In this document: in pieces, positions 25,466 to 59,928 of the stretch | Layout of the letters: the number at the start of each line of letters is the position of its first letter | Numbering within the stretch: the stretch's first letter is position 1 | Assembly (NCBI GenBank): GCA_963706715.1 | Contig: CAVPNI010000003.1 | Location: 672,001-736,000, forward strand | DNA: 64,000 bases | Source: an uncultured Verrucomicrobiae bacterium | GTDB lineage: Bacteria > Verrucomicrobiota > Verrucomicrobiia > Chthoniobacterales > Xiphinematobacteraceae | Reading direction: 5' to 3' | Made by a program: the position numbers and the translations under genes | Notes under the pieces: generated by a model | What the model saw: the letters and a program-made list of their open reading frames with translations, nothing else | Databases searched by the model: none | Told to the model about the DNA's origin: nothing

Positions 25466-25631
25466 CTAGAGCATTTTTCATTTAAATGTTTGCATGAGTT
25501 GCGAGAAATTTTTTTGTCAGGCGAGACGCAACAATTGGGCCATATCCGTAGATACGGACCGATTGTTGCAACAAAGCCTGGCGGAAAAAGAGCCGCAAGG
25601 CATGTAAATAGTTAAATGAAAAATGCTCTAG
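25466..25631. mobile_element. IS630-end MITE with a structured internal core
   Basis: TIRs CTAGAGCATTTTTCATTTAA...TTAAATGAAAAATGCTCTAG match the ends of the IS630 copies at 35296 and 42200. Confidence 0.9.
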
Positions 25632-25700
25632 TTCGCGAAGAACCTACGGCTGCTTCAGATAGGAAAAAATTCTTTATTACATAACATTCATAAAACTTCA

Positions 25701-26174
25701 TTGCCATCCGGACAAGTTATCTCAAATAAAGCTCACCTCTCAGGAGAAGGACAGGAATCGCTTTCCACTAAAATACGCCCCAGGAGACAGTTAGAAAATC
25801 CCGCGATGACACCGGAATTCCAACTAAGGGCTGATCAAATCTCCGAGAAAGGTTTCCAAACTCTGCATCCCTCCACTCAGAATCTATTTCGTCAATTTCT
25901 CAATGCCCTTAAACAACATTTCAATGCAAAAGGCATTGATGTGATTATGATACCGTGTAAACAAAATCTTCAAAGGAACCGATCAAGAGATTCCGGATAC
26001 ACTGCTGGACTAGATGTGGATATAGGACTGTTTAAAAATGGATGCTATCTGAAAAAATCTGATTTATACAGAGAAATTGGGCCGATTGCAAAAAAAATTC
26101 CACAGCTACGATGGGGAGGTAATTGGCTGTTCCCACGCAGAATGCATATAGAATATCGCTTTTCTCGTGTATAG
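25701..26174 (+). CDS. Peptidase M15 (L-Ala-D-Glu peptidase-like) homolog with a degenerate active site
   Basis: LHP, GLDVDIGLF, LRWGGNW, HIE. The SxH and DxxH motifs are altered. Confidence 0.6.
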   Translation: MPSGQVISNKAHLSGEGQESLSTKIRPRRQLENPAMTPEFQLRADQISEKGFQTLHPSTQNLFRQFLNALKQHFNAKGIDVIMIPCKQNLQRNRSRDSGYTAGLDVDIGLFKNGCYLKKSDLYREIGPIAKKIPQLRWGGNWLFPRRMHIEYRFSRV

Positions 26175-26209
26175 CGTTTTACGAATAAAACTGGTATTGT
26201 TATTTAAAA

Positions 26210-26920
26210 TCAGATGGGTGCCGTCATTTGCAGCCAAAGGGATAGCAAACTCGTGACAGCCTGTGGCTGTTCCAATGATGGCAAGTGGCCGCAATCTTCG
26301 ATAATCACCAGTTTGGCATTTGGTAAATGATCAAGCATCAATTTTTGCGTTTCCATTGAGAATAATTGATCATCACGTCCATATATAATCAATGTTGGTG
26401 CGGACACCGCAGGCAGTTCTTTACAAATATCCTGCGCACTTAACAAGATTTTGGTTTGCTGGATCAGCTCGTCATTACTTAGTCCTTGGCCAGCACGCAG
26501 CGATTCCAAGAGGATACGATCCTCGATACGCGCAGGAGATACACACGCTTTGTTCAACTCTTCCCAACATATGGTACCATTCAACAAAGGCTGCAATATA
26601 CCGGTTTCAAAAAAGGTGCGTTGTTCAGAAGAAATCCTTCCGGGAAAGGTGCCCACTAAAATTAAGTTCTGTACACGCTGTGGTACCTGAATGGCTACAT
26701 GCTGGGCAATCAATCCGCCCAGCGAGTGTCCCAATAGGACAAATTGCTCCGGAGCTCGACATAGTACCTCCTCGGCTGCCTCTTTCACCGTGGTTCTGTT
26801 TGTAACAACGATGAATTCCACATCGTATTGCTCTTGCAAATACTGCCTTTGATAATGCCACAGGCGGCCACTACTGTCATTGCTCCAGCCGGGAATGATT
26901 ACTAATTTTGGTCGGTTCAT
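26210..26920 (-). CDS. Alpha/beta hydrolase
   Basis: GHSLGG, PTLIIYGRDD, CGHLPSLEQP. Confidence 0.88.
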   Translation of the reverse strand: MNRPKLVIIPGWSNDSSGRLWHYQRQYLQEQYDVEFIVVTNRTTVKEAAEEVLCRAPEQFVLLGHSLGGLIAQHVAIQVPQRVQNLILVGTFPGRISSEQRTFFETGILQPLLNGTICWEELNKACVSPARIEDRILLESLRAGQGLSNDELIQQTKILLSAQDICKELPAVSAPTLIIYGRDDQLFSMETQKLMLDHLPNAKLVIIEDCGHLPSLEQPQAVTSLLSLWLQMTAPI

Positions 26921-56908: not shown

Positions 56909-56974
56909 CTTTTCGAACTACAGGAACACCTGAATCAGAGCAAGTCGAGCAACAGAGAACGTGATATCCCTTGC

Positions 56975-58468
56975 TCAAGAAGATTTAGCAGAAAGAGCTT
57001 TTTGATAAGCCTTTTCGATCTCTGCCACTTCCTCATCGGTAAGTTCCGGAAATTCACGCTCTCTCCGCTTCCGCGATAATTTCCCATTGTTTCCATAAAG
57101 TCGCATAAGAAGTGACTCTCGCTTCCGATCAGGCAGATCCAAGATCTCTGAAATTGCTTTGCGAGCTTGATCAAATTTTTGCAAAAAGTGAATTTCTTGA
57201 GGAACTGTATAACGGATCGTCTTTTCCAGCATCTGTGCTAAGAACTCGCATTGCACGGTCAAGTCCGGGTAACGGTAAAATCCCTCGATTTCCTGAGGGT
57301 TCCGAATCGTCAGTCCTCCTTCGCTATCGAAAGAGTAATCTGCAGCGACCATCAACGGTTTCGAAAATTGTTCCAAGCAGGCGTCATAGAAGCGCATGTT
57401 TAATAGGATCTCGGCCGAGATCGGTAGCATCAATCCCTCTCCGCCGATTTGGCCACGGGCCAAGATGTCATGAATAAGATAACGATGCAGGCGCCCATTC
57501 CCATCTTCAAACGGATGAATGAAAACAAACGCAAAAGAAATCACAGCCGCTCGAAGTGTCGGTGGAATTCCTTCACTGGAATGGTAATAAGCGGAAATCC
57601 CCTCCATGAGATCATGCACCAAATGAGGAGGAGCTCCTATGGTATGAATGATCTCACAAAAAGGCCCCGTCTGCCCCACAAAGTTTTGTTGCACTCGGAA
57701 TCCCTTTTCACGATACCGCTCTTCCACAATGACATTTTGTAGTAATGTTAAAATATTTTCACTCAGCGGATTCTGCTCTTTCCCAGCTCGATGCAGCAAC
57801 GCTACAAATTTTTCCATTCGTGATCCCCCCACGTCCTCTCGTTCAATCGCAAAAGACGATTTAGTTTCCTTGAAATAAAGGTAGGACAGTGCTCGATAGA
57901 GTACGGATTGAGGAAAATCCCTCAATACATTCGAAATCATACCATTCCAATCTATTTCTTCAAAATGTCGAATAGCTGATGTCCTTCTTATGATTGGAAG
58001 AAACCGATGATCCCCACCTGTGTTGTTGTGAATTCGCCAACGAGCATTTGTCACACTCCTGGGAGCAATCACATAGGTTTCTGGATCCAAAAGAAAGTCG
58101 TAATTTCCCGTGATTTGGATGCTGAGCGGTACTTTCAGCCCCGTTAATTCCTCATACCAAAACCCAATCTTCCTAGCAAATCGCCCGGCTGGTGTTTTTG
58201 CGACGAAATCAGCCACTTCCTGAGGTGAAATATGCCGAAAAATCTTCCCTAAAACATCTAAATCCAAACCATCATATTTCAAAGCAAATGCAAGATTCTC
58301 CAAAGGCTGTTCCCTGGAAGTATAGGACGAGCGCGCATAGTGCTCCTCAACGGTGCCATTAGCTCGCTCGTAACGAATTGCCTTCGGCCCAATAAATGAA
58401 CTGTGTGCAAAAGGTCGCGCTTTCAGGGCAAAATGCTCTGCTAGCCATGAATACCCTACCTTTATCAT
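56975..58468 (-). CDS. Fic family protein
   Basis: HPFEDGNGRLHR Fic motif; ETKSSFAIE. Confidence 0.92.
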   Translation of the reverse strand: MIKVGYSWLAEHFALKARPFAHSSFIGPKAIRYERANGTVEEHYARSSYTSREQPLENLAFALKYDGLDLDVLGKIFRHISPQEVADFVAKTPAGRFARKIGFWYEELTGLKVPLSIQITGNYDFLLDPETYVIAPRSVTNARWRIHNNTGGDHRFLPIIRRTSAIRHFEEIDWNGMISNVLRDFPQSVLYRALSYLYFKETKSSFAIEREDVGGSRMEKFVALLHRAGKEQNPLSENILTLLQNVIVEERYREKGFRVQQNFVGQTGPFCEIIHTIGAPPHLVHDLMEGISAYYHSSEGIPPTLRAAVISFAFVFIHPFEDGNGRLHRYLIHDILARGQIGGEGLMLPISAEILLNMRFYDACLEQFSKPLMVAADYSFDSEGGLTIRNPQEIEGFYRYPDLTVQCEFLAQMLEKTIRYTVPQEIHFLQKFDQARKAISEILDLPDRKRESLLMRLYGNNGKLSRKRREREFPELTDEEVAEIEKAYQKALSAKSS

Positions 58469-58659
58469 AGGCTTTACCTATTTTATGAAGAAATTTGATA
58501 AAAATCCATATTTTTGAAGGATTTTTGATACGGATCGAGGAAATTTGATAAAAATCGGCATTTTTGAAGGATTTTTGATACAGAGTCAACCAGGCTCAAG
58601 AAACGAGGGTGTTCCATATAGATAGTTAAAAAAATTTCAATACCAAATAGATATCAGCA

Positions 58660-59928
58660 ATGAGGAAGGAATGTAAGAAATGCCAAGGAGAGATGAAAAA
58701 AGCGGCACTTGATTTATACACAGATTACTTGCTGAGCACCTTTGGTGCGGCAACAGCGAGGGGACTATCGGCGATGCTGGAAGGCGAAGTAAGCCACGAC
58801 AGGATTACCCGGTTTTTGTCGGAGCAGGACTACACATCCAAGGAACTGTGGCAGCAAGTCAAAGCGACGGTGAGAAAGGTTGAGGGAGAAGACGGGGTGT
58901 TGATACTTGATGATACGATTCAAGAAAAAGCCTGGACGGATGAAAGCGAGTTAATGTGTTGGCACTATGATCATTGTAGCGGACGCAACATCAAAGGGAT
59001 CAACCTGCTGAATGCGCTCTATCACAGTAACGGGACATCGATTCCAGTGGCATTTGAACTGGTGAAAAAGCCGATACAATACTGCGAGCTGAAGACCCGG
59101 CAGGTGAAACGTAAAAGTGAGGTAACAAAAAACGAAATGATGCGATGCGCCAAATGATCGATACCTGTATTAGCAATGACTTAAAATTTCGCTTCGTGCT
59201 GATGGACAGTTGGTTTTCTTCAGAGGAGAACTTCGACTTTATCACGCGCAAAGGCAAACATTTCATTGCCGCACTCAAGGACAACCGGCTGGTGGCACTG
59301 AGCCAAGAAGACAGGAAAAAGAAGCGTTACCTACGAGTAGATGAGCTGGATTTTCCAGAGCAAACCGCATTGCAAGGTTGGCTAAAAGGCTATGCGAAAG
59401 CAGTCCTTTTGGTTCGCCAAGTCTTTAAAAACAAAGACGGGAGCACGGGGATATTGCATCTGGTTTGTAGTGATTTAACTTGCGACTATAGCGAAACGCC
59501 TATAAAATGATTACAAATTTGGCTGAAATTTTTGCTTCAGACGCGACGCGAAAACGAGGCCATATCCATGTGATACGGACTTGTTTTCGTAACAAAGTCT
59601 GGAGGAAAAATAGCGACAAAGGTGTGATCATTTTATAGGCGTTTCGCTATATAACGCCATCACCACGACCTACAAAAAACGGTGGAAAGTGGAGATATTT
59701 CACAAATCTTTGAAATCCAACGCAAATTTGGCCAAATCCCCCACCCGAACGCTAAGAACCCAGAGCAACCACATTTTTATGTCGATTTGCCCTGCCTTCA
59801 AGCTCGAAGCCTTGAGCATCAAAAATAATCTCAATCCCTTCTCCCTCTGTCGCAAACTGCTCATCAACCCCTCTCGTGTCGCCTATGCAGAACTTCAGCT
59901 TTTTCGGGTGGCCGCTGCGTAACATCAG
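58660..59928 (+). pseudogene. IS701-family transposase, disrupted (5-bp duplication near 59145 plus a MITE insertion); right end GCGTAACATCAG
   Basis: SHDRITRFL, LILDDTIQEK, VLMDSWF, YKKRWKVEIFHKSLK. The frame is restored when the insertions are removed. Confidence 0.88.
59489..59649. mobile_element. 161-bp MITE with a TA duplication, inside the IS701 transposase
   Basis: 23-bp TIR TAGCGAAACGCCTATAAAATGAT...ATCATTTTATAGGCGTTTCGCTA. Removing it restores GAC TAT AAC GCC (DYNA). Confidence 0.92.

Follow-up and report, generated by a model that had tools for sequence, protein, structure and literature searches.

The 64,000-nt stretch of verrucomicrobial DNA analysed here (the window) carries two short non-coding elements, E1 and E2, together with two full copies of an insertion sequence (IS) termed IS-E. 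Direct reading of the sequence placed E1, a 160-bp MITE of subfamily 'E', at 25469..25628 on the + strand, with TIRs GAGCATTTTTCATTTAA, TA target duplications at 25467-25468 and 25629-25630, and ends that are identical over 17 nt with similarity continuing inward. E2, a 161-bp MITE of subfamily 'A1', was likewise located on the + strand at 59489..59649, with TIRs TAGCGAAACGCCTATAAAATGA, TA duplications at 59487-59488 and 59650-59651, and 23 nt identical at both ends. A first-pass annotation of the window had recognized both elements, and the strings that it quoted are present in the sequence; its exact boundaries were slightly off (the outer 'C...G' of the CTAG quoted for E1 is flank), and it had given IS630 ends to E1 and a TA duplication to E2, each of which has both. 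Searching the 3.04-Mb genome revealed that the E1 interior is 75.6% identical to the E2 locus over 90 nt (E = 2.2e-10), and reading the two sequences against each other without gaps gave 15 identities in the first 30 nt. The two had been described as aligned interiors within different, unrelated termini: the interiors are indeed homologous, and the ends are partly alike, both being IS630-family TIRs of a common block layout in elements that are colinear throughout.

Searching with nhmmer revealed 149 copies of the 'core', the central part of the interior, on four contigs of the genome, and 127 TIR-delimited elements of 90–300 bp were counted, 120 of them containing the core. These core-bearing elements form the clusters A2-long (31), A3-short (28), A3-long (25), A1 (15), E (8) and A2-short (3), with 10 singletons, and nearly every copy in the genome is flanked by TA. 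E1 is represented by nine near-identical full copies (at least 98.2% identity), and 14 of the 15 copies of the A1 subfamily, to which E2 belongs, are 100% identical in differing flanks. One A3 copy is nested in an A1 copy; its insertion site is the TA within GATACGG, where the single TA became two. Identical dispersed copies, TA duplications and this nested insertion suggest that the elements are mobile. One additional E copy is interrupted by a group II intron; homing of the intron to the MITE was ruled out, as about ten full intron copies lie in varied contexts.

All elements share one layout: 160–254 bp in length and lacking a transposase gene, they consist of a 27-nt IS630-type TIR, a subterminal arm, the core, and a mirror-image arm and TIR, the TIR comprising (T/G)AGC, an 8-nt variable block and TWTAAA(A)TG..TTACA. 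Long forms have an additional GC-rich module of approximately 85–94 nt. E and A elements are gapless and colinear from end to end with the same TIR layout, and their identity is 0.46–0.64 in the TIR and 0.70–0.75 in the interior; among A types, the TIR (0.57–0.89) and interior (0.66–0.87) values are similar. Tabulation of the flanking ends, as the first-pass annotation had advised, revealed no fewer than four classes of TIR around the interior: E, several A blocks and, in a metagenome, M1 and M2. An intact core without terminal repeats was not found among the 149 genome copies: three lack a TIR on both sides, all of them truncated, and another 24 have a TIR on one side only, most of these being truncated or interrupted copies.

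IS-E is an autonomous, TA-flanked IS630-family IS of 1023 bp at 35299..36321 (+ strand), with overlapping ORFs at 35353-35829 and 35775-36308. A second full copy, for which both TIRs were found, lies at 42203..43225 (+ strand; C3:714203-715225; 99.8% identity), and the genome contains about 15 full copies at 99.4–100% identity. Outside the window, the genome also carries IS-A, an 881/882-bp IS630-family IS. Pfam HTH_Tnp_IS630 and DDE_3 were detected in both, the IS-E transposase is an IS630 family transposase by NCBIfam, and the DDE parts of IS-E and IS-A are 34% identical. The TIRs of E elements match those of IS-E at 23–24 of 27 nt and the TIRs of A3 elements match those of IS-A at 24 of 28 nt, a likeness that is limited to the first approximately 27 nt of the elements. 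IS-E is thus likely to mobilise the E subfamily, and IS-E and IS-A together probably move the elements of this genome. No IS bearing E2's own block (GAAACGCC) was found in the genome, and for the recent A1 burst either IS-A or an element since lost would therefore have had to act as cross-mobiliser. Derivation of the core from an IS interior was ruled out, the core being absent from both IS-E and IS-A.

In E1, the core (25516..25582, + strand) comprises an outer stem GTCAGG/CCTGGC, an internal loop CGAGAC/AACAAAG, an 11-bp stem, an apical stem GCCATATC/GATACGGA and a 4-nt loop; in E2 (59536..59603, + strand), the same parts are an outer stem TTCAGA/TCTGGA, an internal loop CGCGAC/AACAAAG, an 11-bp stem, an apical stem and a 5-nt loop. 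Folded as RNA, the entire E1 element gives a single hairpin of -84.2 kcal/mol (z -13.1) and E2 gives one of -83.1 kcal/mol (z -13.9). The arms are complementary along the full element, and each of the single strands can thus form one imperfect hairpin of approximately 75 bp; whole elements are near-palindromic, E1 being 74% identical to its own reverse complement. Because the hairpin continues through the TIRs, the core is its middle and not a separate fold, and it is found free of both TIRs only in the three truncated copies, which disagrees with its earlier description as a separable cargo.

Comparison of E1 with E2 alone revealed seven stem pairs changed on both sides with pairing kept, five in the 11-bp stem and two in the outer stem. 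In a set of 45 cores from genomes G000, G001 and G002 and one named MAG, 84.5% of cells pair, versus 38–48% in slid controls, and double changes occur in 16 of 26 pairs (83 cells), the observed values being reached by none of 500 shuffles. Stems that differ and still pair, as first noted for the two window elements, are thus a property of the larger set, and the covariation does not vanish with more copies. The unpaired AACAAAG loop, in agreement with the annotated conservation of the internal loops, and the apical GGCCATATC...GATACGGAC motif are conserved above the stems and could mark a candidate protein site; inspection by eye for an IHF-type site gave no convincing match. Of the two strands, that in reading orientation gives the better fold in 15 of 16 G000 clusters and, outside these, in 30 of 39 elements taken from other sources; it carries 48 G.T versus 22 A.C mismatches. 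This strand and wobble bias is only suggestive, because the subfamilies from which the statistics are drawn share ancestry; it suggests that one particular single strand is what folds, possibly with a role as RNA or ssDNA. Strand-biased folding is not predicted by a double-stranded cruciform model.

Several copies are mosaics. Those at C3:585609-585851 and C2:344375-344534 have A3 interiors (5 and 2 differences) with the GAAAGTCC block at both ends, that at C4:412482-412641 has the GAAATTCGTG block at both ends, and that at C2:422426-422585 has the A2 block at one end only; one-sided hybrids of E-left/A1-right and A3-left/A1-right composition were also found. Comparison of these copies demonstrates reassortment between interiors and terminal blocks, and the proposed swapping of ends is borne out by near-identical interiors with different 8-nt TIR blocks. 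We hold, with good confidence, that E1 and E2 stand for two subfamilies within a single modular superfamily of non-autonomous transposons of the IS630 family (type II MITEs), whose pairing is probably kept by selection on propagation. Such selection would act on transposition or propagation, for example through cruciform or single-strand folding that joins both TIRs of a 160-bp element, and pairing would be kept because only lineages with intact hairpins continue multiplying; a role for the hairpin in synapsis is pure conjecture. Interiors and end blocks would be reshuffled when dispersed copies undergo gene conversion or ectopic recombination, with the conserved inner TIR block as the boundary, and the E subfamily may have originated when such an interior came between IS-E-type ends.

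A bolder version, which we advance tentatively and consider rather doubtful, is that the interior is a transposase-independent 'mobilisation chassis': a single-strand or cruciform fold selected for its structure, with conserved unpaired motifs that would bind a host or transposase factor, could turn very short elements into efficient substrates of any IS630-family transposase and could have spread between TIR sets by gene conversion. Owing to such spread, one chassis would parasitise several IS lineages in turn.

We think it unlikely that the core is instead a structured RNA or ssDNA module that has a function and is itself selected, a mobile ncRNA or protein-binding cargo moving between transposon ends, as the first-pass annotation had suggested. 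The strong covariation, the strand and wobble bias, the conserved unpaired motifs and the association with at least four TIR classes would all suit such a module, and it would be undescribed, since no Rfam family matches the core: at the gathering threshold, the sole match in the whole window is a SAM riboswitch elsewhere in it, and an E-value search with nine representative elements returned only miRNA-precursor look-alikes (37 bits versus a threshold of 90, 30 versus 249 and 26 versus 97). However, resident copies decay neutrally. Among 21 copies in G002, private substitution rates are 6.55% for paired versus 5.9% for unpaired columns, and changed pairs are mostly broken (47, with 15 retained by one-sided change and 1 compensated); in the G000 clusters, private substitution rates are 1.45% (paired) and 1.19% (unpaired). 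The elements are randomly oriented with respect to the genes beside them (31 same, 41 opposite). Neither promoter nor terminator is clearly present: no such sites were found at E1, and E2 has one weak promoter-like site and one weak terminator-like site, which is within shuffle expectation; on both strands, the hairpin is flanked by a T run 5′ and an A run 3′. The absence of an intact TIR-free core, the extension of the hairpin through the TIRs and a narrow range (three of five genomes of one genus, and no covariance-model match in 150 other genomes of a phylum sample) also speak against the module. Of the structured cargo that swaps ends, the hairpin covariation and the end reassortment stand, whereas the separable cargo and the unrelated termini do not. 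Given the neutral decay and the lack of orientation bias, Rfam match and clear terminator or promoter, the pairing looks selected on element propagation and not on host RNA function, and the elements are a known kind of mobile DNA, IS630-moved hairpin MITEs, not a new kind of RNA gene.

The pairing might also be a mechanistic by-product of arms copied from each other by fold-back synthesis, hairpin-templated repair or mismatch correction within a cruciform, whereby changes on one arm pass to the other. This would accommodate the 8-nt TIR block, which changes in concert at both ends of near-identical interiors, and the near-palindromic sequence of the elements. It is nonetheless improbable, because asymmetries that arm-to-arm copying would erase are conserved across all subfamilies, namely transversion mismatches at arm positions 28, 29, 38-40 and 55-58, the CGNGAC/AACAAAG internal loop, and A.C and G.A mismatches in the apical stem; the one-sided hybrids count against it as well. 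Divergence of the E and A types with their transposases from one ancient MITE, the ends never having been exchanged, would account for the gapless colinearity, the common TIR layout and the occurrence, in a metagenome, of an E-like class of TIRs (M2) whose core is related, but is improbable given the 34% identity of the transposase catalytic domains versus 70–75% at the DNA level between interiors, the absence of sequence constraint in resident copies, the mosaic copies, which prove exchange, and a core tree that puts E and M2 between A-type groups (a short, 87-column alignment with support too weak for placing the TIR-class change).

Modular pneumococcal BOX elements and mosaic non-autonomous transposons are assembled from exchangeable modules, and the TIR block, core and optional GC-rich module of the present elements may be comparable to these. 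Cyanobacterial small dispersed repeats are free-standing mobile repeats nested in other elements; the present core does not fit this type, as only three of its 149 copies are without a TIR on either side and all three are truncated. REP elements are 20–40 bp long and tied to tyrosine transposases, whereas the ends here are of IS630 type. According to the literature cited here, a long stem-loop is a general, classic feature of MITEs (PMC2229807, PMC3184786), and RUP (repeat unit of pneumococcus) is IS630-mobilised with a TA target (PMC2229807, PMC3184786, PMC10969869), its mobiliser being thought to be IS630-Spn1. As described there, RUP resembles the present elements: it is small and non-coding, occurs in many mostly intergenic copies, targets TA, folds into a long stem-loop and has TIRs similar to those of an IS630-family IS resident in the same genome (PMC2229807, PMC3049150). 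Compared by description, RUP is 107 bp versus 160–254 bp here and, unlike RUP as so described, the present elements are modular, with many subfamilies bearing different 8-nt TIR blocks, and are related to two different resident IS630-family ISs. Type II MITEs are defined, in section 2.2 of one review, by IS similarity confined to the TIRs (PMC10969869), and by that section's definition the elements agree, only approximately 27 terminal nt resembling IS-E or IS-A and the interior occurring in neither; unlike type II MITEs generally, one interior is common to TIR classes of different ISs and the stems have compensated changes. The Bacillus bcr1 repeat is similarly dispersed, with a predicted RNA structure kept by compensatory changes (PMC3184786), but its direct repeats are of 5 bp and its fold is two-armed, where the present elements have a TA duplication, IS630-type ends and one long hairpin.

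Full-text literature searching found no published description of the family, and this MITE family of approximately 130 copies in a 3-Mb verrucomicrobial genome appears to be undescribed. It offers a natural experiment: compensated changes preserve the hairpin in subfamily founders, resident copies decay, and near-identical interiors carry different 8-nt TIR blocks. Two questions become testable: whether very short IS630/Tc1-mariner elements are mobilised according to hairpin geometry and not sequence, and to what extent TIR blocks determine transposase specificity. The value lies in annotation and mobile-DNA biology, no new RNA class being revealed.

The search of other genomes that the first-pass annotation had recommended found the family in same-genus genomes, Verrucomicrobia MAGs and metagenome loci. 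A DNA search of 40 relatives revealed the family in two same-genus genomes, with one weak 32-nt match elsewhere, and gave no match in two 0.9-Mb genomes of the same genus. A pattern scan of genome contigs yielded 13 loci, of which 10 lie in one Verrucomicrobia MAG and 1 in another; the other 2, in Anaerolineales and Leptospira, were rejected as chance matches, having no core by nhmmer. The equivalent metagenome scan yielded 18 loci, with a clear covariance-model match for 16, a marginal one (20 bits) for L090 and none for L092, the last two both lacking a core by nhmmer. Among sequencing runs listed as holders of the window there was no RNA run; four soil-metagenome DNA runs of one study contain small shares of it, and no empty site or joint was found in their short contig pieces. 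One soil-metagenome contig carries an E2-type element in a different flank, and on a soil-metagenome contig a different small element adjoins the sequence at window position 59126.

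The two MITEs of the window, E1 (160 bp, positions 25469–25628, with TA at 25467–8 and 25629–30) and E2 (161 bp, positions 59489–59649, with TA at 59487–8 and 59650–1), lie where the first-pass annotation had placed them, and the strings that it quoted are exact in the sequence. A search of the 3.04-Mb genome with the E1 interior recovered the E2 locus (75.6% identity across 90 nt, E = 2.2e-10), and comparison of these two elements alone revealed seven stem pairs that had changed on both sides yet still paired. Neither the apical stem nor the internal loop (CGNGAC/AACAAAG) differed between them. 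The shared covarying interior (the core), whose motifs are the loop AACAAAG and the apical GGCCATATC/GATACGGAC, is therefore real and beyond chance. The elements are best read as a large, tidy new case of a familiar type of mobile DNA, type II MITEs that IS630-family transposases would mobilise.

In the genome (47% GC, contigs C1–C4), of which the window spans C3:672001–736000, a profile made from the two cores found 149 core copies, and paired matches to the terminal inverted repeats (TIRs, which include a variable 8-nt block) yielded 127 short elements of 90–300 bp, 120 of which contain the core. Clusters drawn at 92% identity separated A2-long (254 bp, 31 copies), A3-short (160 bp, 28 copies), A3-long (243 bp, 25 copies), A1, the type of E2 (161 bp, 15 copies, 14 of them 100% identical), E, the type of E1 (160 bp, 8 copies in this count), A2-short (3 copies) and 10 singletons; by BLAST, subfamily E has nine full-length copies with at least 98.2% identity. 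In the long forms, an additional GC-rich module of 83–94 nt separates the core from the right arm. This module has 77 matches in the genome, 76 of them within TIR-bounded elements, and seven TIR-bounded elements contain pieces of it without the core; the family is therefore modular. The module folds as three or four small hairpins (for example, in L059, C1:253429–253682, and L061, C1:173577–173819), in which the differences between A2-long and A3-long are compensated changes. It is reversed relative to the core in five matches, and one match (C2:424134–424216) has no TIR nearby.

The complete element, TIRs included, is predicted to fold as a single long, imperfect hairpin (E1, −84.2 kcal/mol, z −13.1; E2, −83.1 kcal/mol, z −13.9; for each, 0 of 200 shuffles folded as well), and the core forms its central third. 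Such end-to-end stem-loops are described, in the sections consulted of PMC2229807, PMC3184786 and PMC10969869, as a general, classic trait of bacterial MITEs. No intact core was found as a free unit among the 149 copies, because the three that have no recognisable terminal repeat on either side are all truncated and a further 24 that have lost one repeat are mostly truncated or interrupted. The core thus cannot be regarded as a structured cargo in its own right, as had been proposed: it is the middle of a whole-element hairpin. The covariation itself held in an alignment of 45 cores (14 from this genome, 21 and nine from the same-genus relatives G002 and G001, respectively, and one from a named MAG), with pairs counted on the structure given in the first-pass annotation. 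Pairing was retained in 84.5% of cells, and double-sided changes affected 16 of the 26 pairs (83 cells). No shuffle among 500 equalled any of five pairing measures, and sliding the partners lowered pairing to 38–48%. The loss of covariation with more copies, which the first-pass annotation had named as a refutation, therefore did not occur. RNAalifold recovered the outer and middle stems independently.

Substitution patterns indicated the level at which the pairing is maintained. Private substitutions affected paired and unpaired columns about equally, both in the 21 copies of G002 (6.55% and 5.9%) and in five clusters of the present genome (1.45% and 1.19%), and the changed pairs in the G002 copies were mostly broken (47, with 15 kept through a one-sided change and one compensated). 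Resident copies thus decay neutrally, and the differences fixed between subfamilies are compensated. Relative to flanking genes, called crudely as long ORFs, the copies showed no orientation bias (31 same and 41 opposite in tandem intergenic regions); convergent intergenic regions were over-represented (33 of 120 copies, against 17.7% of intergenic regions genome-wide). We found no clear promoter or terminator within the elements, and a T run lies 5′, not 3′, of the hairpin on both strands. The neutral decay, the lack of orientation bias and the lack of a clear promoter or terminator agree with selection acting on the lineages that propagate, and argue against each copy having an RNA role at the level of the host; the tests made thus lend no support to a novel mobile non-coding RNA, as initially suggested.

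Simple copying of one arm onto the other could in principle also yield pairing between the arms. This is unlikely because every subfamily retains the same asymmetries between the arms: at arm positions 28, 29, 38–40 and 55–58 (transversion mismatches), in the internal loop and in the apical stem (A·C and G·A mismatches). One result runs counter to the case against an RNA role. Of the two strands, the one originally annotated gives the better fold in 15 of 16 clusters of this genome and in 30 of 39 elements found elsewhere, and G·T mismatches outnumber A·C mismatches on that strand (48 versus 22). Because the subfamilies share ancestry, this bias is only suggestive, but it would allow for the folding of one specific single strand, as RNA or ssDNA.

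We identified two autonomous IS630-family elements whose TIRs match those of the MITEs. IS-E (1023 bp, two overlapping ORFs) occurs in the window at 35299–36321 and 42203–43225 and is represented genome-wide by approximately 15 full copies that are 99.4–100% identical, which points to very recent activity; IS-A (881/882 bp) has approximately five full copies, outside the window. Each encodes HTH_Tnp_IS630 and DDE_3 domains and bears the NCBIfam name IS630 family, and their catalytic parts are 34% identical. The TIRs of E1 match IS-E at 23–24 of 27 nt and those of A3 match IS-A at 24 of 28 nt; similarity between MITE and IS ends after approximately 27 nt, and the core is absent from both ISs. 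Nearly every MITE copy is flanked by TA, and at one nested locus an A3 copy interrupts the sequence GATACGG of an A1 copy at its TA, which is duplicated. Both E1 and E2, and not E1 alone, thus have IS630-type ends, each pair with a TA duplication. Nor are the two sets of termini unrelated, as had been claimed: all subfamilies and both ISs have one layout, (T/G)AGC, eight variable nucleotides and TWTAAA(A)TG..TTACA, and E1 and E2 align end to end without a gap. In a metagenome, the same core occurs with intermediate and further TIR classes (GAGCGAAATACCTTTAAAATGAG and GAGCATTTATTAA...). A degraded relative of IS-A (C2:32938–33653, 52% amino-acid identity over 97 residues), whose left TIR block starts with ATGA as in subfamily A2, may be a relic of the A2 subfamily's own IS.

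Among the A types, identity is 0.57–0.89 in the TIRs and 0.66–0.87 in the interior; between E and the A types, it is 0.46–0.64 and 0.70–0.75, respectively, so that the interior marks E as an ordinary family member and the ends set it apart as an outlier. Co-divergence of the E and A types from one ancient element is unlikely to account for this, because their interiors are 70–75% identical though the matching transposases share only 34%. Exchange of ends between like interiors, which had been proposed from E1 and E2, is seen directly on a small scale. One mosaic copy combines the left arm of E with the right arm of A1, and a second combines A3 with A1. The copy at C3:585609–585851 has only five scattered interior differences from the A3-long consensus but bears another 8-nt block, GAAAGTCC, at both ends; C2:344375–344534, with an A3-short interior (two differences), likewise has this block at both ends, C4:412482–412641 has GAAATTCGTG at both ends, and C2:422426–422585 has the A2 block at one end only. 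Judged by these alignments, the changed blocks cannot be point mutations, because six of eight block positions differ beside a 98–99% identical interior. The end blocks would be swapped by gene conversion or ectopic recombination among dispersed copies, limited by the conserved inner TIR block, and subfamily E would reflect the same exchange over a greater distance. In a tree of cores, E and the E-like metagenome class fall between A-type groups, with weak support. Of most interest is the possibility that the hairpin, together with the conserved unpaired motifs and the strand bias, functionally assists mobilisation and can be shared by several IS630 lineages.

An Rfam search found no family corresponding to these elements, and full-text literature searches found no paper on them. 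In a DNA search of 40 relatives, the family turned up in two more members of the genus and not in G003 and G004, which also belong to it; the search found no copy in 36 genomes from other families of the order, bar one weak 32-nt match. The covariance model had no match in 150 further genomes of the phylum sample. Pattern scans located the family in two named Verrucomicrobia MAGs and, chance matches aside, in one metagenome, which holds 16 of the scan's 18 loci. G003 and G004 are single-contig genomes of approximately 0.9 Mb that are 99% complete; a range of 0.9–3.04 Mb within one genus is striking.

Other mobile DNA has often inserted into the MITEs of this genome. One group II intron (approximately 2.07 kb, 485-aa ORF with RVT_1 and GIIM) lies inside an E-type MITE (L080, C3:601851–604083), where it splits the right arm of the core. 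The contexts of its approximately ten full copies vary; most follow ...CCG or a similar sequence, and some are located in other MITE or IS copies. The MITE copy at C1:510790–511082 (L074) harbours a different small element, approximately 90 bp long, whose ends are TGACGTTACGCA...TGCGTAACATCA. This small element also occurs in G001 (L045) and, in one soil-metagenome contig, adjoins the equivalent of window position 59126, where the window lacks it. Other, larger insertion sequences interrupt the copies at C3:634192–635804 and C1:657421–659065, one of them with 9-bp direct repeats and ends CATTCCCTTACACAC.... Separately, the window contains a SAM riboswitch (S box, RF00162) at 7817–7957 on the plus strand, scoring 65.7 bits (gathering score, 44.4).
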